Below are positions 1 to 44,105 of a stretch of DNA of 44,105 bases, one piece after another. Position 1 is the stretch's first letter. The number at the start of each line of letters is the position of its first letter. This DNA is from a virus (taxonomy: Duplodnaviria; Caudoviricetes): positions 1-44,105 of IMG/VR virus record IMGVR_UViG_3300020044_011666; one strand, written 5' to 3'. The position numbers and the translations under genes were made by a program. Under the pieces are notes generated by a model. That model saw only the letters and a program-made list of their open reading frames with translations, was not told where the DNA came from and made no database searches.

Positions 1-121
1 CGAGCAAAACAAGCTTTGGTCAATTTTTTGGTCTGGTGGACATATTATCAGTAAAAAAGACATTAGCAATAAAAAAGCTAAGTGGCCTTACCGTGTGCAA
101 AAACTACATACCTCTAACAAA
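1..121. repeat. Terminal direct repeat (circular assembly overlap), left copy
   Basis: 1-121 is identical to 43985-44105 (cgagcaaaac...ctctaacaaa) and lies inside the portal ORF. Confidence 0.95.
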
Positions 122-1132
122 GTAGAATACTACGGTGTATTTAGAGATGTGAGAGAATCTCAGCATGCTATAAACCAGGCTATTCTTAAAATTCAGCTAA
201 TGGTTAACACAGAAAAAGTATTTGTAGAAGAAGGCGCAGTAGAAGACTTAGATGCTTTTATTAACTCAGTAAACCGAGTTAACGGAGTAATCCCAGTTAA
301 GTCTTTGCAAGGAGTGAAAGTAGAAAAGCTTACTCGAGAAATACTTGACCAGTATGTTATTGTTGACCGTGCGTTGGATCGTATTCAACGAGTACTAGGG
401 ATAAACGATAGCTTTTTAGGTATGGCGTTTGCCTCGGACTCTGGTCGTAAAGTTAAGCTGCAAAAAGACTCAACTATTATGTCGCTGCGCTACATCACAG
501 CACGAATTGCAGGATTTTATCGCTCTCTTGGAGAAGACATTGCTAAGTTAGCTCAACAGTACTATACCGCAAATCAGATTCTTATGATTGCTGATGAAGT
601 AGTAGGTCAGCGTTGGATTGAGCTAAATAAACCAATGGTTGCATTTTCAGGTGAGTACAATCCTGATGGTACGCCAATTTATGAACCAATACTGTTGCCA
701 ATGGAAGACCCAGCAAACGGAAAAATACTGGAAGATGAAGAAGGTAATGTAATACTTGCCCCTGTATCAGAAGCTGGTTCCGATTTTAGCGTTACTCAAT
801 TTCAAATTAGGGTAGAAGCATCTTCTTACAACGACGAAGACGAGAAAGCTCAGCTAATGTTAGAGACAGTATTGTCTGGCCAAGTCGGTCAAATGATGGC
901 ACAGATCAATCCTGCAGGCTTCTTTAAAATGTCAGCCTTAGCTTTAAAGTCAATGAAAACTAAATATAGCCCTAACATAGTTGAAGTCTTGGACGAGACA
1001 GCTAATATGCTGGGCGGTAATCCTCAAGCAAATGCTGAAGCTGCTGCAGTTGCACAAGGTAATCCTTTAGGTCAGCAACCTATGAGTAGAAGTCTTAAGC
1101 TTCCTACTAACACAAATGAAGGGGTAGAATAA
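1..1132 (+). CDS. Portal protein, C-terminal part (continues from 43272 across the origin; about 614 aa in total)
   Basis: The 95..1132 frame is continuous with the ORF starting at 43272 after circularisation; P22/N4-like portal C-terminal features (LGMAFASDSGRKV). Confidence 0.85.
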   Translation, partial: EQNKLWSIFWSGGHIISKKDISNKKAKWPYRVQKLHTSNKVEYYGVFRDVRESQHAINQAILKIQLMVNTEKVFVEEGAVEDLDAFINSVNRVNGVIPVKSLQGVKVEKLTREILDQYVIVDRALDRIQRVLGINDSFLGMAFASDSGRKVKLQKDSTIMSLRYITARIAGFYRSLGEDIAKLAQQYYTANQILMIADEVVGQRWIELNKPMVAFSGEYNPDGTPIYEPILLPMEDPANGKILEDEEGNVILAPVSEAGSDFSVTQFQIRVEASSYNDEDEKAQLMLETVLSGQVGQMMAQINPAGFFKMSALALKSMKTKYSPNIVEVLDETANMLGGNPQANAEAAAVAQGNPLGQQPMSRSLKLPTNTNEGVE

Positions 1133-7424: not shown

Positions 7425-8226
7425 TCACCCATGGACAAGTAGAGTACAAAGAGCAGTATTTATCGCTGCACAAGTAATACTTTGGATTGCCTCTCAATAA
7501 TGTTTCAATGGGTTGTTTATCAGAGGCAATTACTTCCATAGTTGCAAGCATACCATTGATAAGAGCCTTAGCTTGAGGCACACGAATAGGCATAGGCAGA
7601 ATCATACCTTCAGGTACTTTCTTTAGCACAACGCCTTGAATAAGCGCAGTGTGCACGTTTTCACCATTAGCTTCAGCTAATAGTTTATACGTAGACTGTT
7701 GCACAATATAAGACGAAGCTGTAAGTGCACGTTTACTTGTCTTAACATCCGCAAGCACTCCGTGGCCCAAATAGTCTACGGTACCGCCAATTTCTTTGAT
7801 AATTGGATTGTCTACATCGATACCAAAGAATTTTTCAACATGCTCTGGTATATCTGTAAAAGGTAGTATGTCTTCTACAAAAGCTTCTGTGCCTTTAATA
7901 ATTTCTACTGCTGCGGTACCGCTGCTTTCGCCGTCGTCGTACTTCATGCCTTTTTGTTCTTCTTCTTTCCAGGCCAACATTGCTGCATCAGTCATTGCAC
8001 CAATGTTTACTTCTTTTTTACCTTTGGCCATAGACTCAGCCCACATTTGTTCTACGCCGGCATGAATACTTGTACCAATAGCGGCACGCGAATTAGGTAT
8101 TGTTACAATACCTTCTAAAAACACTTTGCCCCATTGCCAAGAACAGTTATAAAACAGGTCAATTGCAGAAGGACGAATGCGAACATCAGTAGAATTAATT
8201 TGAATTGTTTGTTTCATTGCTAGCAC
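7408..8226 (-). CDS. PD-(D/E)XK (RecB/Cas4-like) exonuclease
   Basis: IRPSAI..C; GTSIH; GTVD; DVKTS; Q..Y; C-terminal CxxxxCxxxxxC. Confidence 0.85.
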   Translation of the reverse strand: MLAMKQTIQINSTDVRIRPSAIDLFYNCSWQWGKVFLEGIVTIPNSRAAIGTSIHAGVEQMWAESMAKGKKEVNIGAMTDAAMLAWKEEEQKGMKYDDGESSGTAAVEIIKGTEAFVEDILPFTDIPEHVEKFFGIDVDNPIIKEIGGTVDYLGHGVLADVKTSKRALTASSYIVQQSTYKLLAEANGENVHTALIQGVVLKKVPEGMILPMPIRVPQAKALINGMLATMEVIASDKQPIETLLRGNPKYYLCSDKYCSLYSTCPWVNGDAD

Positions 8227-8782
8227 CTTTTAGTAAGTTGAATGCGGCAGAAATTGTCTCAGCCTGAGCAATAGCATCAGACAAAGCATCGTGGGCTATT
8301 TTAGGACGAACAGAGAACTCGCCTGTAGACTTACCAGAGATTTCTTTAGCTAAATCTACAATAGTTCTCATAGACCGTTCTTCATAAAACTCCCAAGGCA
8401 CTTTGTGCCCGTATACACGCAAAGTATAGCCTAGATTAGCTAAATCAAACTGAGGATCCTTAGCCCACATACGATTATTGTTTGCACTACGTTCATAGCG
8501 ATACATTTGATGCATCCATGCTACTAATTGACGTATTGCATTTTCGCCGTCTACTTTGTTTTTCTCAAGTGCAAGATGAGCTTCTGCACTTTGCTTTGCC
8601 CACCAGTCAACAGTACTTTGTGACAATTCAAAGCGATTAATTAGTTCTGGCTTGTGATCAAGACTAACATAGAAAGAGTTTTTAACTTTGCCTGTGTTAA
8701 TATCAAACACACAAGCACCAATTGACAAAATCAATGCTCGATTTGTCAGCGAAAGGGTCTCGATATCGATTGATACATCCAT
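8195..8782 (-). CDS. DEDDh 3'-5' exonuclease (DUF5051/ExoVIII-like)
   Basis: IDIETL, ILSIGA, TVDWW.KQ, FDL, HDALSDA motifs. Confidence 0.85.
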   Translation of the reverse strand: MDVSIDIETLSLTNRALILSIGACVFDINTGKVKNSFYVSLDHKPELINRFELSQSTVDWWAKQSAEAHLALEKNKVDGENAIRQLVAWMHQMYRYERSANNNRMWAKDPQFDLANLGYTLRVYGHKVPWEFYEERSMRTIVDLAKEISGKSTGEFSVRPKIAHDALSDAIAQAETISAAFNLLKGASNETNNSN

Positions 8783-8830: not shown

Positions 8831-9253
8831 TTAAAACACGGTGACGGTCACGGAATTAGACGATTTCAACAAATTTATGGCCCGTTTTTGATTCGAAAAC
8901 CACGAACTTGTTTCTTTAGGCATCGGCATGACCACTTTACTTATGTTTGCTTGTATAATTGCAGCAGCACATTTAACACAGCATGCTTCTGAAATATACA
9001 TAGTCCAGCCTTTGGTATCATCCGCATTAAAAATACAATTTAACTCTGCGTGAACCATTAGCTCATTTTTTTCTTCTTTGTTAGACAGTAATTCTTCACT
9101 GTCTATTATACCTCTAGGAAAACCGTTGTAGCCCCAACTAACTTTACGATTGTCAGGTGAAACTAATATGGCACCGACTTTTTTGCTAGGGTCTTTACTC
9201 CAATGCGCAATTTCTTGCGACAGTAAAATAAAGCGAGCATCCCATTTAGTCAT
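8831..9253 (-). CDS. dCMP deaminase
   Basis: SKDP..KVGA, GYNGFPRG, HAE, CCxxC (PCxxC variant); likely start MTKWD at 9253 rather than 9325. Confidence 0.9.
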   Translation of the reverse strand: MTKWDARFILLSQEIAHWSKDPSKKVGAILVSPDNRKVSWGYNGFPRGIIDSEELLSNKEEKNELMVHAELNCIFNADDTKGWTMYISEACCVKCAAAIIQANISKVVMPMPKETSSWFSNQKRAINLLKSSNSVTVTVF

Positions 9254-9542
9254 TTGGTACACAGCGGTCTTCTGCAAGAGTAGCGTATCCTGCAATGTCG
9301 TGCCAATGGTCTGGTTCATTTGCATTACCTGTACAAATACGAGCTGACTTGTGCATCACCATATCAAGAGCCTCTTTCTTGTCCGGTGACAGTGATTCCC
9401 AGCCAGGAGAGTTGCGTAAGATGTCTTTTAAGTCTTGTGCAATTTGCGCATTGACACTAAACTCGCCATGAGTATTACCGCGGGCTTTAAGAGTTGATTG
9501 TACAGACTTTACTGTTACTGCTTTAGTCGAGGTTCTGGCCAT
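9246..9542 (-). CDS. DUF6378/nucleotide-modification-associated small helical protein
   Basis: RG..HG.F ... K.ARI..G...DHWHDIAGYA.L signature. Confidence 0.75.
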   Translation of the reverse strand: MARTSTKAVTVKSVQSTLKARGNTHGEFSVNAQIAQDLKDILRNSPGWESLSPDKKEALDMVMHKSARICTGNANEPDHWHDIAGYATLAEDRCVPND

Positions 9543-10098
9543 TTAGTTCTGCCTCTGCTATAATTAGCTTAAGTGCTTCGGTTGGTGGAATATAGCTTTG
9601 GCCTTTGCCTTCAGATGAATACTTTTCACTGATTGCAATGACTTTAGCTGTTTTAGTGTTGTTGCTTACTACAATTGCTTCAAAAGCTTTTTTAGCTAAA
9701 GCTTCTGAATTCAATATTGCGCACACATGCACATAACAAGCACCAATAATTTGGTACAAGTTACCTACTGCAATATATGTGCCAGGCATCATTATCATGC
9801 TACGTATATTACCTGCAATACTTTCATGAAAAGCCATTTGCATTTGAAGCTCTTCATTAAACTTAATAATAGACTTTAGACTTTCTTCGCATAGCGGATA
9901 GCTGGACTTCCAAATAGCCCCAGCGGCAACAAAAGCTAGGTCTACAGTGGCATCGATAGCATCAATAGCTACTTCGGCGTCGTAATATTCTTTTAACTCT
10001 TCTTGCAGTAAAGACAAAGTTAAAACTGGCTCAAAAGTTTGAGAATACCGAAGCTTATTCCACTCACCTGCAGCAGCTATAAACTGAATTAGTTCCAT
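9523..10098 (-). CDS. All-alpha NTP pyrophosphohydrolase (MazG/PRA-PH-like)
   Basis: LLQEELKEY ... DATVDL.FVA.G acidic metal-binding motif; V..SN..K and Y.PP C-terminal motifs. Confidence 0.75.
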   Translation of the reverse strand: MELIQFIAAAGEWNKLRYSQTFEPVLTLSLLQEELKEYYDAEVAIDAIDATVDLAFVAAGAIWKSSYPLCEESLKSIIKFNEELQMQMAFHESIAGNIRSMIMMPGTYIAVGNLYQIIGACYVHVCAILNSEALAKKAFEAIVVSNNTKTAKVIAISEKYSSEGKGQSYIPPTEALKLIIAEAELNGQNLD

Positions 10099-10100
10099 TA

Positions 10101-10928
10101 TTAATCCTTAAGAAGAAATTCAACTTTAGGGCCAAAAGCCTTATAGTTGATAAGTGAAACATCAGAAGGTAAAAAGTCTACTAGTTTTTTACCTGGTTCA
10201 GCAGTGTAGCGCCACTTAGTTATAGGTATTCCATCATAATAAGAAGCATCGGAATACAGCTGTGCAAGTTGCGCTGCTTTTTCTTTATGCTCTTCGTAGA
10301 TGTGAGTATCTGCAAAGTGCATAGTGCACTCACCTGCTATTAAACCTGTTTCATTAGCTAAAGCGATTAACCACAGTGCTGCTAATATTGCATCAGCAGG
10401 AATACCTATCATTGTGTCAGCAGACCGCTGTATCCATACCATATGTAGAGTATTCCCGCGAACAATAAACTGATAAGCATAATGACAGCAAGGTAAACTA
10501 AGGTTATTATTAATAACGTTAGCAGGATTCCAACCAGATACAATAAGTCTGCGACTTTGCGGGTTAGTTTTAATTTCATTAGCTACCCACTCCAGTTGAT
10601 TCACGCCGTTGAAGTCTAACCAAGCATTACCGTAGTCTACTTTAATAGACAAGTCTTTTTCTGCCCATTTTTGCCAATAACCGCAGCCAAACTTAACAAA
10701 GTCCTCTAAAGCTTTAGGACCTCTTACTATAGCTGCAAACTCTCCAAACACTCCGCGGTAAAAGTATTCACGAGCTTGTAAAATAGGAAACTCTTTACGT
10801 AAATCAAAGTTAAGAGTTTGACCAATTAAGCTGACAGTGTTGCCATTACGTCCTTTAACTTGTTCTCCTGTTGCTAGTATGCTTAAAACAAGAGAAAAGT
10901 ACATGTGTTCAAAATTAGTGTGGGTCAT
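10101..10928 (-). CDS. Thymidylate synthase (ThyA) family protein, possibly dCMP-specific
   Basis: NPQSRR, LPCCH catalytic Cys, QRSAD..IG.PAD, DTHIY; Asp at the E. coli Asn177-equivalent position. Confidence 0.9.
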   Translation of the reverse strand: MTHTNFEHMYFSLVLSILATGEQVKGRNGNTVSLIGQTLNFDLRKEFPILQAREYFYRGVFGEFAAIVRGPKALEDFVKFGCGYWQKWAEKDLSIKVDYGNAWLDFNGVNQLEWVANEIKTNPQSRRLIVSGWNPANVINNNLSLPCCHYAYQFIVRGNTLHMVWIQRSADTMIGIPADAILAALWLIALANETGLIAGECTMHFADTHIYEEHKEKAAQLAQLYSDASYYDGIPITKWRYTAEPGKKLVDFLPSDVSLINYKAFGPKVEFLLKD

Positions 10929-11233
10929 TTCACTACTCCTAAATAATCTAAAGTAGGTAAATTGTCTACAGCTTCTTGCTCTGTAGAACCACTACCGTAT
11001 GTTTGTGTTTGTTCTATAGGAATAGCAGAATACCTAGCCATCCAATTGTTGTCATCGACTTTTACAGTCTCTACTTTATTCCAAGCAGTGTCTGTGTTAT
11101 CTAAACATTCAGGGTGACCTTCATGCGTACAATGACTGCAAGGAGGTGACATGTTGCAAGAGCAACCTCGGTCTTCGTAAGTGCTTTCAAACTCTTCTTT
11201 CCAACCTTCTGCTTCAAGAGTTAGCTTCTTCAT
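10925..11233 (-). CDS. Hypothetical Cys-motif protein
   Basis: GCSCNMSPPCSHC motif; likely start MKKL at 11233. Confidence 0.6.
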   Translation of the reverse strand: MKKLTLEAEGWKEEFESTYEDRGCSCNMSPPCSHCTHEGHPECLDNTDTAWNKVETVKVDDNNWMARYSAIPIEQTQTYGSGSTEQEAVDNLPTLDYLGVVK

Positions 11234-12929
11234 AAAATGCCATTCCATCAAGTTTATAGTCGTAGATATTAGGAATATCGTCGTTCTCAATATCTGCCCA
11301 ATTTTTACCTACTGCAACTTCTACCGGCATAGGTAAATCTTTTACTTTAAAACACTTTGACATTTCAAACCAAGCTAATTGCATGCACTTAGCTAAGTCT
11401 TTAGACACCGGAACATAAATATCAGCATTGTCATCGCATTCTAAAATATAAGAATCGTGCACAAAGTTGCAGATTAATACATTTTGCTCTTTGTATTTAG
11501 GGTAGTAGTCGCGCACAAAGTAGTGCATAGCTAATTTAGCTACTTCTGCACCTGCGCCTTGGTTTTCAATATTCAAAAAATCAGTGAGAAGTACCGCTAA
11601 ATACTCACGACCTAGTGGAGTAGAGTGAACCGCACCGCGTTTATACTTACTTATACCTGCTTGTTGCCATTGGTAAATTTCACGCCACAAATTGCGCCAT
11701 TTAGTTCTAGCTTTAATAGCATCGCTTTCAAGCATTGCAATATCCATTGTTTTTAACATTACAGTCAAAAACATATCAATACCACCGCCGTATACAAGCA
11801 AAAAGTTACAGCCTTTAGCTACTTGTCTATTCCATTTAGCTTTTGCTTTGTCTTCAGTCGGCCCAAACAACATTAAACTTGTATAAGCATGTAAGTCTTC
11901 GTCATCTCTGAATAACTTAAGCATTCTTACACAATGGGTTATTGCACAAATTGTGCGAAGTTCTAACTGCGCATAATCTGCATAAATCAAGACACGACCT
12001 TCAGGAGCTTCAAATACGCATTTTAATGCCCGTGGCAACTGCTGCAAATTTTGATCATCCGAAGTAAGGCGACCCGAGCGCGCAGACGGCTTAAACTTAC
12101 CGTAAATGCGTTCGCCTTGGAACTTGTCCATAAAGCTAAGTTGTTTTCTTAACTTGCGAACAAGTCTAACTCTAGCAGCGCGCTCATCACCTTCTTGTGC
12201 CATTCTAGCTAATGCAATGTCGTCAGACTCAGTAGAACCTAAATATTTGCGAACTTGCTGCCAAGAATTTACATTGATAGGTACTGCAGCTTTTTCAATT
12301 AACTCAAGATTTTCAGAGTACTTTGCATTAAGACGCTCTTGGGAAATAGGCATGCCATGCCATTGAAACAGCAAGCAGTTTTTCAATGCTGCAATATCCA
12401 GTTTATAACTAGGGGTGTTTTCAACATGCTTCACTTTAGCTAGTATATCAGGCATGAACCAAACATCCATTGCAGCATAGAGCAATTGATCATTGGTTAG
12501 TATTGGAGCAGCCCAATTTGACTTCTGTAAAGCGCTTTTGTCTAAACCTGCTTCATTATATGGGTCATGGCCAATACATGCCGCAACAACATCATCATAA
12601 GAATACGAATCAAGCCTAGGTAAAGCTAAACGAGACAATAAAAATGTATCTTCTATGTTGTCAGGAATCCAAGACTGCACACCATTAGCTTGACAAGTCG
12701 TAATTTCATAGTGCGCGTTGTGTGCAGCAAATGGCTTAGCTAAAAGTATTTGAAGTTGAAAGACTTCAGGCCAACGAACTAATAAAACTTCTGGCCATGA
12801 AGCTTGGTAAAATTGTGCCAGGCTTACTTCGCCGTACAAGCCAACCGTCTCAAAGTCTACGCAAAGTAAACGGTCGTCAAGTACAGCTGCAGCCACGTCT
12901 TGCAACGTGGCAAAGCGGTAGGGTACCAT
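11214..12929 (-). CDS. polA: Family A DNA polymerase with 3'-5' exonuclease domain
   Basis: DFET, HNAHYE, YAAMD exonuclease motifs; SGRL..NLQQLP; DYAQLELR; RQVAKGCNF..YG; VHDS. Confidence 0.95.
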   Translation of the reverse strand: MVPYRFATLQDVAAAVLDDRLLCVDFETVGLYGEVSLAQFYQASWPEVLLVRWPEVFQLQILLAKPFAAHNAHYEITTCQANGVQSWIPDNIEDTFLLSRLALPRLDSYSYDDVVAACIGHDPYNEAGLDKSALQKSNWAAPILTNDQLLYAAMDVWFMPDILAKVKHVENTPSYKLDIAALKNCLLFQWHGMPISQERLNAKYSENLELIEKAAVPINVNSWQQVRKYLGSTESDDIALARMAQEGDERAARVRLVRKLRKQLSFMDKFQGERIYGKFKPSARSGRLTSDDQNLQQLPRALKCVFEAPEGRVLIYADYAQLELRTICAITHCVRMLKLFRDDEDLHAYTSLMLFGPTEDKAKAKWNRQVAKGCNFLLVYGGGIDMFLTVMLKTMDIAMLESDAIKARTKWRNLWREIYQWQQAGISKYKRGAVHSTPLGREYLAVLLTDFLNIENQGAGAEVAKLAMHYFVRDYYPKYKEQNVLICNFVHDSYILECDDNADIYVPVSKDLAKCMQLAWFEMSKCFKVKDLPMPVEVAVGKNWADIENDDIPNIYDYKLDGMAFYEEANS

Positions 12930-14727: not shown

Positions 14728-15471
14728 TTAGTCAAGTACCGCAGTAAGCTTGTCTCTAGCAGACTCAAGTTGCGACTCTACTGGGTCTTTACTTTGCCTA
14801 ATAAATTTGCTAATTGCGTATTCTAATGACTGAATTTCTGACAAGGTAAAAGTAATACTTATAGGAGTACTAGGTAATAGAGCTGGTTGACTTACTTCTG
14901 GCTCTTCAACTTTATCCGCTCTTGCATTAGCTTGATCATCTGAGTAACTACCAGACTTATAACGGGCTTTGTCGCCTTTAAGTAGTTTATTCATGTTACC
15001 TTCAAGCACTTCTTCTCTTGTAATATCCATTGTATTACTGGTATAAAACTGATCTAATTGATGCCGACAAATGTCTGCAAGACTTAAAATTTCTTCTGTA
15101 TCAACAGACTTACCATACATAGTTAGCCTTTTTATTTTGTCTAGTAAATTACCTGTACTAATTAACAAATCGTCGCATAATGAAGAAGAGCTTTTCATTT
15201 TAACAATGCCATCAGTTGGTATAGTTCTAGGGCCTGCCTCTAAGCCTTGATAAATACCTTGTAAATAGAACTCATAATCTCCGAGTTCTTCTACTACATT
15301 AGTTCGATCATTTAACAAGCAAGCTTCTTTAAGCTCAGCAACTTCTCCAATTGCACCCAAAATCATATGAATTAAGTGCATGCTTGTAGCTTTCATTTGA
15401 GTTAAAATGAGTTCGCCTGGCTTAGCTAAGTCTTTTACCATTTGAACAAATTGCAACAATAGTTCTTTCAT
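14728..15471 (-). CDS. MazG-like nucleotide pyrophosphohydrolase
   Basis: GEVAELKE...EELGD..FY; N..KL...RY..G.YS...A..RADK. Confidence 0.8.
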   Translation of the reverse strand: MKELLLQFVQMVKDLAKPGELILTQMKATSMHLIHMILGAIGEVAELKEACLLNDRTNVVEELGDYEFYLQGIYQGLEAGPRTIPTDGIVKMKSSSSLCDDLLISTGNLLDKIKRLTMYGKSVDTEEILSLADICRHQLDQFYTSNTMDITREEVLEGNMNKLLKGDKARYKSGSYSDDQANARADKVEEPEVSQPALLPSTPISITFTLSEIQSLEYAISKFIRQSKDPVESQLESARDKLTAVLD

Positions 15472-22293: not shown

Positions 22294-23298
22294 CTACAGT
22301 TTCCACTTTTTAGACTGCGCAATAAGAAAAGCCATACGTTTAGCACCAGCTTTACGGAAATACGAACGGTTTGTTTTAAACCATTCAGCTATTATTTCGT
22401 TAGGCTGTGGAACGCGATAAGCAGTTCTAACACTGCCGCTTTGGCTATAGACACTGTAAAAGCTGTGAGAGACGTAAGTGCCTCGGTAGCCTGACAATTG
22501 TTGGCTATAAGTGACTGGTGCACTTTCCATTTTGTTTGCTAATTTAACACAAGCTTCTAACAGAGGTTCGGGTGCTTCTATTGCACTAAAACCGCTAAAG
22601 TCATGCACTTCTTTTAATAAGCCTTCTGCAATATAATCCCAACGCTCTGTATCGCACCAGATTCGTGCAATTGCTTCGGCCAAGGCGTATGGATCAGACA
22701 CACGGCGATCGCGTTCTAAAGAGATTTGAGACGGTTTTAGATTGTAGCTATGCTTATAGTTCATGGAAGCAATTTTAAGCCCGCCAACATATAAACAATC
22801 CGAGCTGTTGGGTACAATACCAAAAGGATGATCTTTAGCTAAATGTAAGCTGTTAAATTCTGCAAATTCTTCTGCTGTGCATTCAAACTCAATCATTGTA
22901 CCGCCGACGTAATTGCTTACTTCAGTACAGTCAAAGCTAAGTATTTCTAGACCTAGGCTATCTTCCCACCCAGGAGCAATATAGTAAGAACTATGTATGT
23001 CAGGCTCACGACCTTCACGAAGTAAAACTAATATAGCTAGTTTAAGCCCTTCTCCATGAGTACCAATTGCATCTGGGTTGTCTCGCTTACTAGACTCGCC
23101 CATATACAAAGCAGCAATAGGTAATTCAGTACTAGTTGTAATGCTACAAGAATACCTACTTGAGCCTTCAATTGGGCTTAAAACTATATGCCAGCTTTCA
23201 GGATCACTGTCAATAGCGTTTTGCACAAGTTCACGCATGGCATCTTGTACAGTCCAGTCAGGTATGTAATTGCGGGTAATGTTAGTTTGAATTTTCAT
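22294..23298 (-). CDS. GHKL (HATPase_c/MORC-like) ATPase domain protein
   Basis: RELVQNAID (N box); MGESSKR...IGTHGEGLKLA (G boxes); GGT.IEF. Confidence 0.8.
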   Translation of the reverse strand: MKIQTNITRNYIPDWTVQDAMRELVQNAIDSDPESWHIVLSPIEGSSRYSCSITTSTELPIAALYMGESSKRDNPDAIGTHGEGLKLAILVLLREGREPDIHSSYYIAPGWEDSLGLEILSFDCTEVSNYVGGTMIEFECTAEEFAEFNSLHLAKDHPFGIVPNSSDCLYVGGLKIASMNYKHSYNLKPSQISLERDRRVSDPYALAEAIARIWCDTERWDYIAEGLLKEVHDFSGFSAIEAPEPLLEACVKLANKMESAPVTYSQQLSGYRGTYVSHSFYSVYSQSGSVRTAYRVPQPNEIIAEWFKTNRSYFRKAGAKRMAFLIAQSKKWKL

Positions 23299-23836
23299 TT
23301 ACTTGTTCCTTTATTAAAGGTATATAAGCTTTTGTAAAGCCATTAGTTGGTGTGCTAAGATCAAAATTAGCAATAATAAACTCAATAACTTCATTAGGAT
23401 CTGTGTCTTTTGAAAACACTATATTTGGGCCGTGTTTGTCAAGCATAACAGCATAGATATTGCCAAACTTAGTTAAGCCATTTACAGTGTTTTGCCCGCA
23501 CTCATGGCTACCACATTCGTATTGCCATTGACTTTGTACAGGTATGTTGTATTGTGCATTTTCTTTTAGAGGGCAATGAAAATGCACAATACAATCAAGT
23601 TGAGGATATGTATCAAATATTATTCGTTGAGACTGACCACCAACACTAGGCTTAACACCATAAGCAATAACAGAATCATCACCGTCTGTTTTTACTAGCA
23701 CCATGCCATTTGACTCAATAAAGTTAAAGTTTGTTTTGCGTATGCTAGTTAAAAATAAATTACTGGCCAACTTAGCAGCAAAATGACCTGTTGTTACGCC
23801 ATTAAATTCTTTGTAAGCCCTTGAGCAACGCACCAA
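23282..23836 (-). CDS. Class II aldolase/adducin-like domain (probably the C-terminal half of a split fusion gene)
   Basis: GHFA.K...FLTS.RK; KPS; IVHFH Zn motif; AVMLDKHG. Confidence 0.65.
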   Translation of the reverse strand: MVRCSRAYKEFNGVTTGHFAAKLASNLFLTSIRKTNFNFIESNGMVLVKTDGDDSVIAYGVKPSVGGQSQRIIFDTYPQLDCIVHFHCPLKENAQYNIPVQSQWQYECGSHECGQNTVNGLTKFGNIYAVMLDKHGPNIVFSKDTDPNEVIEFIIANFDLSTPTNGFTKAYIPLIKEQVNENSN

Positions 23837-24534
23837 TTAATAACAGTGCGCAGATTTGCAGGAACTCTTTTGTCTTGCCAAGGCACAGGAGTACCCTCAA
23901 TAACTGTAGACCGAGTAAAAGAAAGATGGCTACGGTTATACGCCATATCTATAATCATTTGCAACAAGTGTTCTCTTGTTGCTTCGTATACACCTTCTTC
24001 AGGTGTTATTATCATGTTGCTATGGTGCATAATATCGTTAGCTAAAACTAAATTTAAAGAACAACGCTTTAGCAAGTCTAGTCCTTTAGCAAATTGCTCA
24101 GACTTAGATGCATTATAAGTAGTTTTAAAGCCTACAACAAAAATATCTTTACGATGCTTACGTATTTTAGCTAAGGTTTTTTCTTGTATGCCTAATAACT
24201 CTGCAGCGTAGTCTTCTTTACTGCTAAGTCTTTGCCAAGGAGAATGAACTTTTAAGTGGAAATCTACCATGGCAATGCTAAATATAATAATTTTTACAGT
24301 ATTGTCGTTTACTAAGCTAGTTATATACGCATCAACGTCTAAAGTAGACTCTAATTTAGACGTAGAATCTGCCATTTTAGTTAGCACTAACTTAGTAGTT
24401 AAATTAGGAAATTTAAGCTCTGCCAAATCTGCTAGTTTACGAGCAGTTGTACCGTAGGCTACAGAGCTAATCGACAAATGTGGTCTAACTTTATTACTTG
24501 TACCACCGCCAAGTATGACAATTTGCTTTTTCAT
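23794..24534 (-). CDS. CoaB/DFP-like (phosphopantothenoylcysteine synthetase fold) protein
   Basis: ILGGGT...S..AYGT.ARKLA; A.VDF; K.LAKI; VVGFK; LVLAND match the DFP C-terminal domain pattern. Confidence 0.7.
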   Translation of the reverse strand: MKKQIVILGGGTSNKVRPHLSISSVAYGTTARKLADLAELKFPNLTTKLVLTKMADSTSKLESTLDVDAYITSLVNDNTVKIIIFSIAMVDFHLKVHSPWQRLSSKEDYAAELLGIQEKTLAKIRKHRKDIFVVGFKTTYNASKSEQFAKGLDLLKRCSLNLVLANDIMHHSNMIITPEEGVYEATREHLLQMIIDMAYNRSHLSFTRSTVIEGTPVPWQDKRVPANLRTVINWCVAQGLTKNLMA

Positions 24535-25070
24535 TTGCTCATTTGCTCCTTAAGAATTAGTTGTTCAACATAGTCAAGTACGGCTTGTTGCTTAGTAGTG
24601 CCGTGACCTGTAACATTATTGGCGTTAGCAGTCCAAATAATTTTGCCTTCAGGTTTGTACAGTGTATAAGCAGAGTAATATTTTTCTACGTCTGCAAATC
24701 TTTTAGGCATTGTGCCAGTATTGATAATATGACGGACTAAATCTGCAGCTTGTTGAGCAGTTACATAAGCTGGATGAGCGTCCCAAAACTTATTGGCACT
24801 TATAGAGCTGCCGAAATAACAAGCAACGTGAAAATTCTGTAGATCTCTTAAATCTTTAAGGCCTAAAAAACCCGCTAAGTTATCTAGGCGCCAATTATTG
24901 TTTATAGTGAGCATAGCATGACCTAATATACAAGCGCTAGTGCCACAAGAAGGATAGGCTTCAATTAGCTTGCTGTACTCATGAATTGTTTGGTCTTTTA
25001 TAGAAATAAGACGAGTTAAATTAAAATCAAAAGACTTAGCTAAATGATACTCGAATTCTTTAGGTGTCAT
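24531..25070 (-). CDS. CGTSAC-motif hypothetical protein (paralog 1)
   Basis: CGTSACILGHAML; VTAQQAADLVRH; likely start MTPKE at 25070. Confidence 0.7.
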   Translation of the reverse strand: MTPKEFEYHLAKSFDFNLTRLISIKDQTIHEYSKLIEAYPSCGTSACILGHAMLTINNNWRLDNLAGFLGLKDLRDLQNFHVACYFGSSISANKFWDAHPAYVTAQQAADLVRHIINTGTMPKRFADVEKYYSAYTLYKPEGKIIWTANANNVTGHGTTKQQAVLDYVEQLILKEQMSK

Positions 25071-25191
25071 GTTAGTTCCTAGGCGCAACGAATTGGCACA
25101 GAGACGTTTGGGAAAATAGTTGTTAGAGTAATATTTAATAGCTAGGCTAACAACTAAGATAAATAAAACTAATAAATAAGTTTGTTACGTA

Positions 25192-25898: not shown

Positions 25899-26399
25899 TT
25901 ATACAGCGGCTTGGTGTGCTTGAAGCTCTTCAAGAGTGTCAAACAATACAACGCCTTCAGGTGCTGCAATAACAATAGCTTTTTCTGCATCCAGGCGAGC
26001 AATTTCAGCACCGATATCAGCTTGTGCAATTTCACCTGAGGCAACTTTGGTCAGCAATTCATCTTTTGCTTTTTTGTACGCATTTTGTTGCTTGGTCCAT
26101 GCGTTCAAGCCAGCTTTGCACATGCTGTTGTAACCAGAAGGAGTGTTAGCTTTCTTACCAGTTTCAGTGACACGAGGGTCAAACCATTTTTGGAAATAGA
26201 AGCAACGAATGCCAACAACTTCACCCGCTTCGTTTTTGTGGAAAGTAGTAGCACGACCGCCACCGCCTTCGCCCACACGAGCTTTGGTCAACTCGGTAAT
26301 TTCTTCCATAACGTCAGAAACGCGCACTTTAGAGTTAGCCGCAATTGCTGCAGTCAATACGGCGAGGATTGGTTCAAAGACTTTCTTAGTTTTGCTCAT
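25899..26399 (-). CDS. Early hypothetical protein, paralog of 27717-28286
   Basis: CFYFQKW...G.NSMCK.G.N.WTKQQ; own -10 (TGTATAAT near 26475) and terminator. Confidence 0.8.
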   Translation of the reverse strand: MSKTKKVFEPILAVLTAAIAANSKVRVSDVMEEITELTKARVGEGGGGRATTFHKNEAGEVVGIRCFYFQKWFDPRVTETGKKANTPSGYNSMCKAGLNAWTKQQNAYKKAKDELLTKVASGEIAQADIGAEIARLDAEKAIVIAAPEGVVLFDTLEELQAHQAAV

Positions 26400-27671: not shown

Positions 27672-28337
27672 AATGACTACAAATAAGTACTTTGCCTAAG
27701 ATGGTTTGATTAAGAATTAAGATGGAACGTTCCAATCGTCTTCTTGTACTTTTGCAACTTTCTTTGCCTTAGCTTTAGTTACTTTAGGCTTCACAGTTTT
27801 TGGCACTTCTACAGCTTCTAAACTATCAAGCAAGTCATCCAAAGAATCAAATGCAGTTGGGTAAGACTCTGCATATACTATTGAGTCTTTGGTAGCCGCA
27901 ATCTCTTCTTGTACAACACTTAGTTGATCAATTGGCAATTCACCAGTAGACAACTTAGTTAACAACTCAGTTTGAGCTTTCTTAAACTCTCTTTGTTGTT
28001 TGGTCCATTGATTCACCCCCAACTTGCACATTGAGTTCAAACCAGTGGTTGTACCGGCTTTTGCACCGTATTCGTGGTCAGCAACAAGTTCCCACTTCTT
28101 ATGATAGTAGCAAAAAACTGCAATTACTTTGCCGTTCTCATCTTTATAAGAAGTTGGACCATTAGAACCACTTGCAGTCTTAGAACTCATTAGTTCAATT
28201 AGTTGAGGCATGAGTTCACTAACCAGTTTGTCTTTGTTAGCTGACAACAAGGTGTTCAATTCATTAAATACTTTTTTGATTGACATAATATTACTCCAAA
28301 GGGTAGTGTTATGACAAAGTACTTATTTGTAATCATT
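27672..28337. repeat. 23-bp inverted repeat pair flanking ORF 27717-28286
   Basis: 27672-27694 aatgactacaaataagtactttg matches the reverse complement of 28315-28337 (aatgattacaaataagtactttg) at 22/23. Confidence 0.85.
27717..28286 (-). CDS. First early gene, hypothetical, paralog of 25899-26399
   Basis: GGAG RBS; CYYHKKW...GLNSMCK.GVNQWTKQQ; Lys-rich tail. Confidence 0.8.
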   Translation of the reverse strand: MSIKKVFNELNTLLSANKDKLVSELMPQLIELMSSKTASGSNGPTSYKDENGKVIAVFCYYHKKWELVADHEYGAKAGTTTGLNSMCKLGVNQWTKQQREFKKAQTELLTKLSTGELPIDQLSVVQEEIAATKDSIVYAESYPTAFDSLDDLLDSLEAVEVPKTVKPKVTKAKAKKVAKVQEDDWNVPS

Positions 28338-41675: not shown

Positions 41676-43272
41676 TATTGCATCAGGCGTAACTCGCGGA
41701 CTTGCCAAAGTTGCGGATTATAATCGTGATTCAGATGCTAGAGAAGCTCGTAACTCTCGTGCTCGCTTAATGCAGCAACAGGCAGAAGCTCAAATAGCTT
41801 CAAATTTGCCTAAAGCTCAAGCAGACGTAGAAGTTGAGCAGCTTAAAAGCCAGCTGTCTACTATGCAAGCAGAGTCTCTTAAAAAAGATACTTTTAATGC
41901 TTTTAGTCGCTATGATAGTGATAACGATACTTCGCATTTAAATACTTTCTTAGCTAATGCTAAGAAAAATCCTTTAGGTCAAGGCATGTATGCAAATATT
42001 GCGCGTTTTGACCCATTGCGTGACACACCTGAAGTTAGAGCTCAACTTGGGCAAATGGGTGTAGATAATATTGAAGACTACTTAGCTAATCCAGAATTAG
42101 CGGCTAGTAAAGTATTAGTTACCCAAACTGATGGAACTCAAACTGTTTCTGACATGAATAAAATGTATGCCATGACAGGCTATACAGATTACTTAGGTGA
42201 AAAACAATTAGCTAAGTTAAATCAACGTGCGGCTATTGACCGTTTAATTCAAGGTCCTCAGTCTGCTGAAACTAACTTGATTCGCAAAATGGCAGAAGAA
42301 CAAGGTATTAGTATAACTAAAGCAGCTCAAAACTATTTTAGAGATAAACAAGGCGGTGCATCTGGTGGGCGCAAATCAGCTCAAGAACGTATTGCGGATG
42401 AAATCATGGCAGAAAATCCAGAAATGTCTATGGAAGATGCGATGATTCGGGCAAAACAACTTACTACTTCAGGCTCTGCGTTAGAACGTGAAGCTCGTAG
42501 AGTAGCCGGCGAAACTGGTGAAGACTTTCAATCTGTGTATCAAAGGCTTAAAAACAACGAAGAACGTACTACTAAGCGTAAGCAGCTAGACGAAGCAGAA
42601 AATGTCAGAGCTAAAATCGACGAAACAGTTGGCGGTGATTTTTTAGCGTTAGACACAGTAGACGATAAAACCAGAGCTAAGATTGGTCGTCATATAACTG
42701 AGCTTGAGTCGTTGACAGGTAAATCTTTTTCTACTGATGACAAAAAAGAGTTGCGTAAACTTCGTAACTTAATGCAGCTTGGCGGTAAAGCTGGAGAAAA
42801 ACTTACTGAGGCAGATACTGGCTTTATTGATGCAACTCTGAAAAGTGTTAAAAAGTACTTTGTTGACGACGCCAAAGGAACAGAAGCTTCTTCTGCTTAT
42901 CAAACTTTTGCTAACACTTTGCGTAACATGTTTTATGGTGCTACGTTAACTGATGCAGAGATTGAAGCATTTAGAGCAGCTTCAGGTTCTTTAAAGCAAC
43001 AGTTGAAGCCTGCATTAGCTGGTTTGAAGACGCAGTTAAGTACTGTGCAAGATCAAATGAAAACAATTTACGAGCTTAATGATGAATACATAGCTCAGTA
43101 TTACTTAGGTTCAAGTTTACAGCAAATGGAAAAAGTAATGGACGCTATGGATGAGCGTATTGCTTTGTTTGACGAAATTGAAGATGATGTAATTAAAGCC
43201 GAAGTACCAGTTAAAGGTGCTGAAACTCAATCTCGCCCATCTTTGGACGAAATATTTGGACGTGCTAAATAA
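41659..43272 (+). CDS. Probable DNA ejection/internal virion protein
   Basis: 537-aa helical protein; G.TLTDAE motif; located in the ejection module. Confidence 0.6.
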   Translation: MPTSVDIASGVTRGLAKVADYNRDSDAREARNSRARLMQQQAEAQIASNLPKAQADVEVEQLKSQLSTMQAESLKKDTFNAFSRYDSDNDTSHLNTFLANAKKNPLGQGMYANIARFDPLRDTPEVRAQLGQMGVDNIEDYLANPELAASKVLVTQTDGTQTVSDMNKMYAMTGYTDYLGEKQLAKLNQRAAIDRLIQGPQSAETNLIRKMAEEQGISITKAAQNYFRDKQGGASGGRKSAQERIADEIMAENPEMSMEDAMIRAKQLTTSGSALEREARRVAGETGEDFQSVYQRLKNNEERTTKRKQLDEAENVRAKIDETVGGDFLALDTVDDKTRAKIGRHITELESLTGKSFSTDDKKELRKLRNLMQLGGKAGEKLTEADTGFIDATLKSVKKYFVDDAKGTEASSAYQTFANTLRNMFYGATLTDAEIEAFRAASGSLKQQLKPALAGLKTQLSTVQDQMKTIYELNDEYIAQYYLGSSLQQMEKVMDAMDERIALFDEIEDDVIKAEVPVKGAETQSRPSLDEIFGRAK

Positions 43273-44105
43273 TGAGCCAAACTATTACTACTGAGTACTT
43301 AAGAGAGCTGTTTAAATATGGTTACGAGGCATTTGAAAGTTCTCGTATTGAAGCTAATGACGTGTGGGACCTTTACCACAATCGTCATTACACAGAGCAA
43401 CAACTTAGTATATTAGCTGCAAGAGGTCAGCCAGCTGAAACTTTTAACATTATTAAAATGTTTGCTCGTATGTTAGTTGGTTACTATTCTACTGTAGTTA
43501 ATACTGCTGTGGCTATACCTGTTAACCCTCGTGATATTGATTCGGCAAGCATGTTGACCGATATTATCGACTATACGCTTAATGACAATCGCTATGATAT
43601 TGAAGGTGATCAAATTAAGCTTGGTGGTCTAATATCTGGTATATTAGTTTGCTTCAATAATGTAGTAGACACAGGTTTTAAAGATTCTTTTGGTAGGCCT
43701 ATTAACCGCATTACTTCTCATCACGTGGCAGATGAGGAAGTTGTGCTCGACCCAGACTCAGTGTTAACGGATTACAGCGATGCTCGTTGGTTACACAGAT
43801 TTAAGTGGTTACATAAATCCGAAGTGATTCGTCAGTTTGGCAAATCTCATATAGATCATATGGATGCGTACTATAATAGTTTAGACGTGCCTGAAGCTGA
43901 CTTTGAATTTAAATTTTCTACTAACTTTCAAGGCCGCTATAGAGAGCATGAACACTACTTAGTTATACACACTGTGCTGTTGGACGAGCAAAACAAGCTT
44001 TGGTCAATTTTTTGGTCTGGTGGACATATTATCAGTAAAAAAGACATTAGCAATAAAAAAGCTAAGTGGCCTTACCGTGTGCAAAAACTACATACCTCTA
44101 ACAAA
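43272..44105 (+). CDS. Portal protein, N-terminal part (continues at window start)
   Basis: ATG 43272: MSQTITTEYL...RGQPAETFNII...DPDS...DYSDARW; open to the window end and in frame with 95..1132. Confidence 0.85.
   Translation, partial: MSQTITTEYLRELFKYGYEAFESSRIEANDVWDLYHNRHYTEQQLSILAARGQPAETFNIIKMFARMLVGYYSTVVNTAVAIPVNPRDIDSASMLTDIIDYTLNDNRYDIEGDQIKLGGLISGILVCFNNVVDTGFKDSFGRPINRITSHHVADEEVVLDPDSVLTDYSDARWLHRFKWLHKSEVIRQFGKSHIDHMDAYYNSLDVPEADFEFKFSTNFQGRYREHEHYLVIHTVLLDEQNKLWSIFWSGGHIISKKDISNKKAKWPYRVQKLHTSNK
43985..44105. repeat. Terminal direct repeat, right copy
   Basis: Identical to 1-121. Confidence 0.95.

Follow-up and report, generated by a model that had tools for sequence, protein, structure and literature searches.

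Phages in which 5-methylcytosine (5mC) takes the place of cytosine include Xanthomonas phage Xp12 (MT664984) and Pseudomonas phage PaMx74 (JQ067093). In both, genes for a PRA-PH nucleoside triphosphate pyrophosphatase (NTPase), a thymidylate synthase (TS) homolog, a deaminase and a dihydrofolate reductase (DHFR) lie side by side. Here we describe the TS homolog of another phage, found at 10101..10928 on the minus strand of the IMG/VR virus record IMGVR_UViG_3300020044_011666 (Caudoviricetes). The whole record of 44,105 bp was analyzed and is called the window below. The enzyme carries Asp at the position that sets base specificity and is predicted to methylate deoxycytidine monophosphate (dCMP) rather than deoxyuridine monophosphate (dUMP).

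TS homologs of this kind have been described in two metavirome studies. Among Pfam families, thymidylate synthase showed the strongest association with metavirome contigs carrying modified cytosine (Yang et al. 2021, PMC8670742). Positions 177 and 147 (E. coli ThyA numbering) distinguished modified from unmodified contigs, 147 being the second most discriminating, and Asp177 was enriched on the modified ones (PMC8670742). The Pfam table in the eLife supplement lists Thymidylat_synt on 109 selected versus 303 unselected contigs. In the later study (Yang et al. 2024, bioRxiv 10.1101/2024.12.05.627091), 104 of 149 deaminase genes on modified-cytosine contigs were located at most 3 kb from a TS gene, and the commonest neighboring domains were PRA-PH, DNA_pol_A and DNA_pol_A_exo1. 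Five of seven linked TS homologs, together with the Xp12 TS, made 5-methyldeoxycytidine (5mdC) in vivo, and one TS-linked deaminase converted 5-methyldeoxycytidine triphosphate (5mdCTP) to thymidine triphosphate (dTTP). The role proposed there is the production of thymidine from 5mdC nucleotides in phages that swap cytosine for 5mC.

A residue code for these enzymes has also been published. Asn at position 177 goes with dUMP and Asp with dCMP, while at position 143 a bulky hydrophobic residue correlates with methyl products and Asp or Glu with hydroxymethyl products (PMC13326640; PMC6400193). Asn at position 169 marks the flavin-dependent 5-hydroxy-dCMP synthases (PMC13326640), and T4 dCMP hydroxymethylase (dCH) is further marked by a Ser/Thr-x-Tyr motif and by having no C-terminal tail (PMC6400193). 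The N177D (N229D) change alone turns TS towards dCMP (Liu and Santi 1992, Hardy and Nalivaika 1992, cited in PMC8670742).

The TS homolog and its specificity residue

The gene encodes a member of the thymidylate synthase superfamily (PF00303, ThyA fold). The Pfam match to Thymidylat_synt covers residues 9-264 (E 9e-52), and no other PF00303 gene is present in the record. The positions discussed in the text are the following, with E. coli ThyA equivalents.

10101..10928, minus strand: open reading frame (ORF) of the TS homolog, 275 aa, PF00303; predicted dCMP C5-methyltransferase (5-methyl-dCMP synthase)
10635..10637, minus strand: Asp98 codon, GAC; aligned with E. coli Val93, adjoining catalytic Tyr99; a clade-specific invariant
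10494..10496, minus strand: Leu145 codon, TTA; aligned with E. coli Leu143, three residues before catalytic Cys148
10485..10487, minus strand: codon of catalytic Cys148; aligned with E. coli Cys146
10428..10430, minus strand: codon of residue 167, read from the sequence
10416..10418, minus strand: Asp171 codon, GAC; aligned with E. coli Asp169
10392..10394, minus strand: Asp179 codon, GAT (ATC on the plus strand); aligned with E. coli ThyA Asn177, the pyrimidine-specificity residue

Residues 167-179 of the TS homolog are QRSADTMIGIPAD. An earlier note on this DNA, made from the sequence alone, had placed the Asp at E. coli Asn177 by a gapless alignment, and three methods agree with it. A phmmer search against the TS sequences of the PDB (122 distinct sequences at E <= 0.001; best 6auj_A, 2.9e-35) paired 'qrsadtmigipad' with 'qrsadvflgvpfn' without gaps. 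MAFFT and BLASTP both put the segment on E. coli YQRSCDVFLGLPFN, with D179 opposite N177, so that phmmer, MAFFT and BLASTP all run gapless on the canonical TS stretch QRSCDVFLGLPFN. The MAFFT alignment also has Asp in this column for T4 gp42, as the note had stated, and for the TS of Xp12 and PaMx74. The AlphaFold2 model, for which 120 homologs were used, reached a mean predicted local distance difference test score (pLDDT) of 95.7 and a predicted template modeling score (pTM) of 0.93. The PDB matches listed by Foldseek for this model are all thymidylate synthases, with template modeling (TM) scores of 0.85-0.93, and no dCMP hydroxymethylase is among them; the E. coli TS entries superpose with TM 0.88-0.93 and a root mean square deviation of 1.7-1.9 Å over about 270 columns. 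The equivalence of D179 and N177 is accordingly read from a gapless sequence alignment inside a near-identical predicted fold, and not from residue-by-residue structural pairs.

In the rest of the protein the resemblance is to ThyA rather than to T4 gp42, as the note had also maintained: BLASTP gave 105 bits for E. coli ThyA (28% identity), 77.8 for the Xp12 TS and 38.5 for T4 gp42. The motifs that it had named are all located in the protein, namely SRR (125-127), PCCH (146-149), DTHIY (207-211) and W..W (85 and 88). PCCH was discarded as a diagnostic motif, for the TS of Bacillus phage BigBertha has PCCH together with Asn177. The catalytic set Cys146, Arg166, Ser167, Asp169, Tyr94, Glu58 and Arg126'/Arg127' is complete and invariant across the clade, while the Asn177 of a canonical ThyA is replaced by Asp179. 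The NCBIfam ThyA equivalog models score the protein under their cut-offs, except TIGR03284 (131.8 bits versus a cut-off of 108.35).

The Asp is highly conserved. Eight out of eight closest phage records (MW202665, PH1, KF-1, Amaethon, VPMS1, Kolga, MW202744 and the window), with identities of 41-63%, have Asp in the column of residue 179. In an alignment of the best 120 of 239 collection proteins at E <= 1e-10, it occupies the 177 column in 119, the lone exception being P0023 with Asn, and Leu145, Cys147-Cys148-His149, Asp171, Asp98-Tyr99, Glu63 and Trp85 are found in all 120. The signature D98-L145-C148-H149-D171-D179 is present in 80/80 IMG/VR loci, which are the best 80 of 164 relatives from a pattern scan. 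Because Asp recurs throughout these three sets, Asp179 is neither a sequencing error nor a chance event. In a quick tree the exception P0023, which has 11 member sequences, branches from within the Asp clade, and it retains Asp98; P0023 may have reverted naturally to dUMP specificity. Relatives in the clade are annotated 'thymidylate synthase', the automated labeling foreseen in the earlier note, and these include the cultured phages Edwardsiella KF-1, Vibrio VPMS1, Pseudoalteromonas PH1, Dickeya Amaethon and Pelagibacter Kolga.

The residues at positions 143/169/177 were compared in one reference alignment.

E. coli ThyA and T2 td: L/D/N
T4 gp42: D/D/D
RB69 gp48: –/N/D
Xp12 and PaMx74 TS: V/D/D
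TS homolog of the window and its clade: L/D/D

The reference enzymes sort in this alignment as the published code says. By the same three positions the window enzyme is a predicted 5-methyl-dCMP synthase, because it has Asp at 177 (D179), Leu at 143 (L145) and Asp at 169 (D171), and the natural dCMP methyltransferase proposed in the earlier note is, as a prediction, in line with the published rules. The T4-type hydroxymethylase signature is absent: residue 145 is Leu, the stretch adjoining the catalytic Tyr is Val97-Asp98-Tyr99, and the tail is as long as that of E. coli ThyA. The Asn169 of RB69 gp48 is likewise absent, being replaced by Asp171 in 120/120 homologs. Also retained in the clade are His147, Gln165, Trp80, Trp83 and the ThyA-length C-terminal tail (E. 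coli numbering).

Genes around the TS homolog

The TS gene belongs to a co-directional block headed by a family A DNA polymerase gene. The relevant genes are as follows.

14728..15471, minus strand: second MazG-like pyrophosphatase candidate, phrog_229 E 5.7e-18, no Pfam match
11214..12929, minus strand: family A DNA polymerase, PF00476 E 1.3e-30, heading the block
10925..11290, minus strand: small Cys/His-rich ORF between the polymerase and TS genes, its stop overlapping the TS start
9523..10098, minus strand: all-alpha (MazG/PRA-PH/DR2231-like) NTP pyrophosphatase; predicted dCTP (or dUTP) pyrophosphatase (deoxycytidine or deoxyuridine triphosphate)
9246..9542, minus strand: DUF6378 small protein, PF19905 E 5.3e-6
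8831..9325, minus strand: dCMP-deaminase-family protein, PF00383 E 2.2e-16, phrog_174 E 5.8e-39
8195..8782, minus strand: Rv2179c-like 3'-5' exonuclease, PF16473 E 7.6e-38, downstream of the deaminase

The TS, NTPase, DUF6378 and deaminase genes are separated or overlapped by a few bases only, and the NTPase gene begins 2 nt past the TS stop. The window thus has both partners of a 5-methyl-dCMP synthase cassette, an NTP pyrophosphatase and a dCMP-deaminase-family gene. The identity of the putative NTPase comes from several matches that are weak but consistent. The protein matches phrog_671 (E 2.5e-7) and its orthologs match PRA-PH; BLASTP against PaMx74 gp53 gave E 8e-6 over 41 aa, a stretch with the EExxE…D motif common to both; and a profile of 12 orthologs (A5) finds the MazG-like DR2231 (E 9e-6). 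At the place of the DUF6378 protein, relatives have DUF6378, dGTP_diPhyd_N or DUF1599 domains, at times fused to the deaminase; PH1, KF-1 and Amaethon have a fusion of dGTP_diPhyd_N and deaminase. The phage may encode up to three all-alpha NTPase-type proteins (9523..10098, the DUF6378 protein and 14728..15471). Homology of the deaminase starts near an internal Met at 9253, and identity to the Xp12 and PaMx74 deaminases is 35-36%; it is predicted to act on 5-methyl-dC nucleotides, giving dT nucleotides. The small Cys/His-rich ORF has no family match among Pfam and PHROG profiles. No match to ThyX or DHFR was found among phage ORFs of at least 80 aa, and no DNA methyltransferase was found in the window. 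Walker A motifs occur in the window only in two helicase ORFs and in the ORF of the Rv2179c-like exonuclease.

Neighboring genes were also sought within about 4 kb of the TS gene in the 80 IMG/VR loci, using home-made iterated hidden Markov models. The NTPase was found in 62/80 loci and the deaminase in 36/80. Flanks of 3 kb or more on either side are available for 43 loci (full-flank loci); of these, 30 have the NTPase, 25 the deaminase, 19 both and 7 neither. A Pfam check of 14 full-flank loci lacking the deaminase (4 exact duplicates were dropped), comprising 133 plus-strand ORFs of at least 100 aa, detected PRA-PH in 10/14 and DHFR in 3/14. Across the 80 loci, which were not deduplicated, a DHFR gene is present in 13 and abuts the TS gene in 11, corresponding to about 7 distinct sequences (abutting in L036, L037, L045, L049, L052, L057, L059, L062-L064 and L080). 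DHFR beside an Asp-type TS fits a reductive methylation that produces dihydrofolate, as in Xp12 and PaMx74. Several of the loci with abutting DHFR come from T7-like phages that have a single-subunit RNA polymerase, and L037 has a deoxynucleotide monophosphate kinase 1.6 kb from its Asp-type TS. Three loci (L023, L024 and L025) have neither NTPase nor deaminase within 4 kb of the TS. Found there instead are an S-adenosylmethionine (SAM) synthetase, a DAHP/KDO8P-synthase-family protein, two cytidylyltransferase-like proteins, a CMP-KDO-synthetase-like protein and a cupin, which could be a sugar-based hypermodification cluster or an unrelated auxiliary one.

Other features of the record were noted. 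According to the IMG/VR classification it has direct terminal repeats and is 100% complete. A P22-like portal gene is split over the record ends: 1-1132 (plus strand) covers profile positions 285-576, and 43272-44105 (plus strand) covers 2-187. The first 50-500 bases differ from the last 50-500. Because the portal gene is split and the ends differ, the record acts as a circular or permuted assembly opened in the portal gene. Four co-directional ORFs of 334, 184, 246 and 185 aa lie at 22294-25088 (minus strand): the 334-aa ORF matches phrog_6077, that of 184 aa has a weak class II aldolase match, that of 246 aa has a DFP/CoaB C-terminal domain (E 5.4e-8) and that of 185 aa has no match, and searches of PDB sequences gave nothing for the cluster. 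A relative of the 246-aa protein, in every case annotated 'hypothetical', is encoded in 40 records of phages (Pseudomonas phiPsa374-like and Caulobacter). This CoaB/aldolase-like cluster was considered as a hypermodification module and set aside, being missing from KF-1-like relatives and having no informative homologs. Two paralogous ORFs, at 25899-26399 and 27717-28286 (minus strand), both match phrog_10459 (E ~1e-51 each). The whole window has a GC content of 36-41%, with observed/expected ratios of 0.70 for CpG and 1.55 for GpC; the CpG depletion was rejected as evidence of modification. Two public sequencing runs share 0.09 and 0.07 of the sampled words of the window, as contigs only.

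Possible pathway and alternative explanations

The explanation that we favor, with a probability of roughly 0.65, is that this TS-fold enzyme converts dCMP to 5-methyl-dCMP with methylene-tetrahydrofolate, likely supplying 5mC, and through the deaminase also thymine, for the phage DNA. The MazG/PRA-PH-like pyrophosphatase would turn dCTP into dCMP, both feeding the TS homolog and clearing ordinary dCTP. The TS homolog would then form 5-methyl-dCMP by ThyA-type chemistry, with attack by Cys148, methylene transfer and hydride donation from the folate, in a presumably closed site that keeps Leu143, Trp80/Trp83, His147, Gln165, Asp169 and the full-length C-terminal tail. The 5-methyl-dCMP would be phosphorylated to 5-methyl-dCTP, for use by the phage family A polymerase, by kinases that presumably belong to the host, because none is recognizable in the phage. 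Finally, the deaminase may turn part of the 5-methyl-dC nucleotide pool into thymidine nucleotides, standing in for the dUMP-dependent thymidylate synthase that the phage lacks. The substrate, the product, the roles of the helper enzymes and the 5mC in virion DNA are inferred, from the residues, fold, conservation and gene cassette observed here.

Several points weigh against this explanation. The deaminase is not universal in the clade, as the locus counts above indicate, and the Pfam check of the plus strand of the 14 non-duplicate full-flank loci gave no match to any deaminase family. The window has no DHFR and no recognizable deoxynucleoside monophosphate (dNMP) kinase, and a gene for such a kinase occurs in only 1/80 related loci. 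The rule for Leu143 is a published correlation. Two of the seven TS homologs tested in vivo gave no 5mdC (bioRxiv 10.1101/2024.12.05.627091). The TS homolog is only 26% identical to the Xp12 TS, and in the quick tree described below Xp12/PaMx74 and gp42/gp48 fall outside the group formed by the clade and the canonical TS. Since the window TS lies outside the Xp12 clade, the analogy with Xp12 is one of residues and gene context. No published enzyme assay or DNA analysis was found for the window protein or for cultured members of the clade. In the literature on KF-1, Kafunavirus, VPMS1, PH1 and Amaethon, no statement on DNA modification was found either way, and the available part of PMC8472413 does not mention it.

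The same activity could serve another role, in which thymidylate is made from dCTP via dCMP and 5-methyl-dCMP to thymidine monophosphate (dTMP), bypassing dUMP, and virion cytosine is ordinary. The missing phage kinase that would lift 5-methyl-dCMP to the triphosphate agrees with such a route, and so do the deaminase in the same operon as the TS homolog and the AT-rich genome, whose composition implies a high dTTP demand; in addition, the Discussion of the preprint proposes synthesis of dT from 5mdC nucleotides as the role of the deaminase (bioRxiv 10.1101/2024.12.05.627091). We nevertheless regard it as unlikely that this is the sole role. TS-deaminase pairs are enriched on contigs that resist cytosine-directed treatments, that is, on modified DNA (bioRxiv 10.1101/2024.12.05.627091); 18/43 full-flank loci have an Asp-type TS with no deaminase nearby, leaving DNA as the only obvious fate of the product; and Xp12 runs the pathway for both purposes.

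Asp98 is invariant in 120/120 homologs and 80/80 loci, in a column where the reference alignment has Val or Ile in canonical TS and Ala in Xp12. It aligns with Val93 of E. coli TS, the three-dimensional equivalent of Ser94 in T4 dCH, which holds the catalytic water (PMC6400193). This placement keeps alive, against the methyl product, the idea of a dCMP hydroxymethylase of new design, in which Asp98 would activate the water handled in T4 gp42 by Asp145 and Ser94. The sugar-nucleotide genes around the TS of one clade member (L023-L025), which might serve glycosylation of a hydroxyl, would suit such a product. The hydroxymethylase signature is missing, however: position 143 is Leu instead of Asp/Glu, the Ser/Thr-x-Tyr motif is lacking, and the Trp83 equivalent and full tail are kept. 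In addition, DHFR abuts the TS in 11/80 loci. Deamination of 5-hydroxymethyldeoxycytidine (5hmdC) would give 5-hydroxymethyldeoxyuridine (5hmdU), not thymidine, and a phage lacking a dUMP-type TS would be left with no thymidine source of its own. Moreover, because the Asn-bearing P0023 keeps D98, this residue is not obviously tied to cytosine chemistry. A hydroxymethylase is therefore a doubtful candidate, placed below the purely thymidylate-making role. An ordinary thymidylate synthase that methylates dUMP in spite of its Asp is very improbable. The remaining catalytic residues are all ThyA-like and every one of the nearest solved structures is a TS, but N177D (N229D) by itself turns TS to dCMP (cited in PMC8670742), Asp is present in 119/120 clade members, and Asp177 is the residue enriched on modified-cytosine contigs (PMC8670742).

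The thyA label given by automated pipelines hides the likelihood of 5mC-containing DNA and of a dUMP-free thymidine supply in this phage. This bears on evasion of restriction and defense, on phage sequencing and cloning, on host-range work with the cultured relatives and on mining for methyl-selective deaminases.

Comparison with known systems

A phylogeny of the clade against ThyA, gp42 and the Xp12-type enzyme, which the earlier note had proposed as a check, was obtained as a quick maximum-likelihood tree of 31 rows with midpoint root, supported by Shimodaira-Hasegawa-like approximate likelihood ratio tests (SH-aLRT) only, with no bootstraps and with only 4 canonical TS rows. The 23 clade rows group together (SH-aLRT 99) beside the 4 canonical TS, with Xp12/PaMx74 and gp42/gp48 outside. 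Common descent with the Xp12/PaMx74 enzyme is not indicated by this small tree or by the 26% identity, and the tree suggests an independent Asn-to-Asp switch in the window clade. A bolder idea, which we hold as speculative, is that the clade forms a third lineage of cytosine-specific TS, of independent origin and derived from canonical ThyA instead of the Xp12 or T4 gp42 lines, in which the invariant Asp98, at the water-binding position, possibly gives chemistry or a product beyond the three-residue code. If this were true, KF-1, VPMS1, PH1, Amaethon and Kolga, with their 'thymidylate synthase', would have fully modified and so far unreported cytosine.

E. coli ThyA and the canonical TS (EC 2.1.1.45) are the best sequence and structure match of the window enzyme. 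Common to both are R21, E58, W80, W83, Y94, L143, C146, H147, Q165, R166, S167, D169, H207 and Y209, and a C-terminal tail of the same length. The differences are Asp for Asn177, Asp for Val93 and the nature of the tail, which is charged in the window enzyme (…FLLKD) and hydrophobic in E. coli ThyA (…PVAI). T4 gp42 and RB69 gp48 resemble the window enzyme in having Asp177 and in dCMP being its predicted substrate. However, the window enzyme has none of four features of T4 gp42 (Asp143, Val83, Thr147 and the missing C-terminal tail), and it has Asp where RB69 gp48 has Asn169. With the Xp12 and PaMx74 enzymes it shares the TS fold, Asp177, a hydrophobic residue at 143 and Asp169, and these phages, like that of the window, have no dUMP-type TS. 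Of their four adjoining genes the window lacks DHFR. The window enzyme keeps His147, Gln165 and Trp83, which in Xp12 are replaced by Pro, Leu and Phe, and has Asp instead of the Ala of Xp12 at position 93. The window phage is also podovirus-like with 44 kb, whereas Xp12 and PaMx74 are siphoviruses of 59-64 kb.

There is a parallel in gene content with the metavirome TS homologs of the MetaGPA studies. They have Asp177 and the neighbors PRA-PH, deaminase, DNA_pol_A and exonuclease, as in the window, whose layout fits the description in the preprint gene for gene; the IMG/VR record also passes the genome-mining filter used there (presence of a deaminase and of a TS having Asp at N177). At position 147, in contrast, the window clade has the His of the unmodified type in the 2021 study. 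Enzymes of this kind, Asp177 TS homologs associated with modified-cytosine phage DNA and with activity forming 5-methyl-dCMP, are already published (PMC8670742; bioRxiv 10.1101/2024.12.05.627091). What the present locus adds is modest: a large clade that is closer to ThyA than to either Xp12 or T4 gp42, including cultured phages and bearing an invariant Asp98. Its value is in correct annotation and in a large clade of aquatic podophages, cultured members among them, with a distinct, ThyA-like form of the enzyme.

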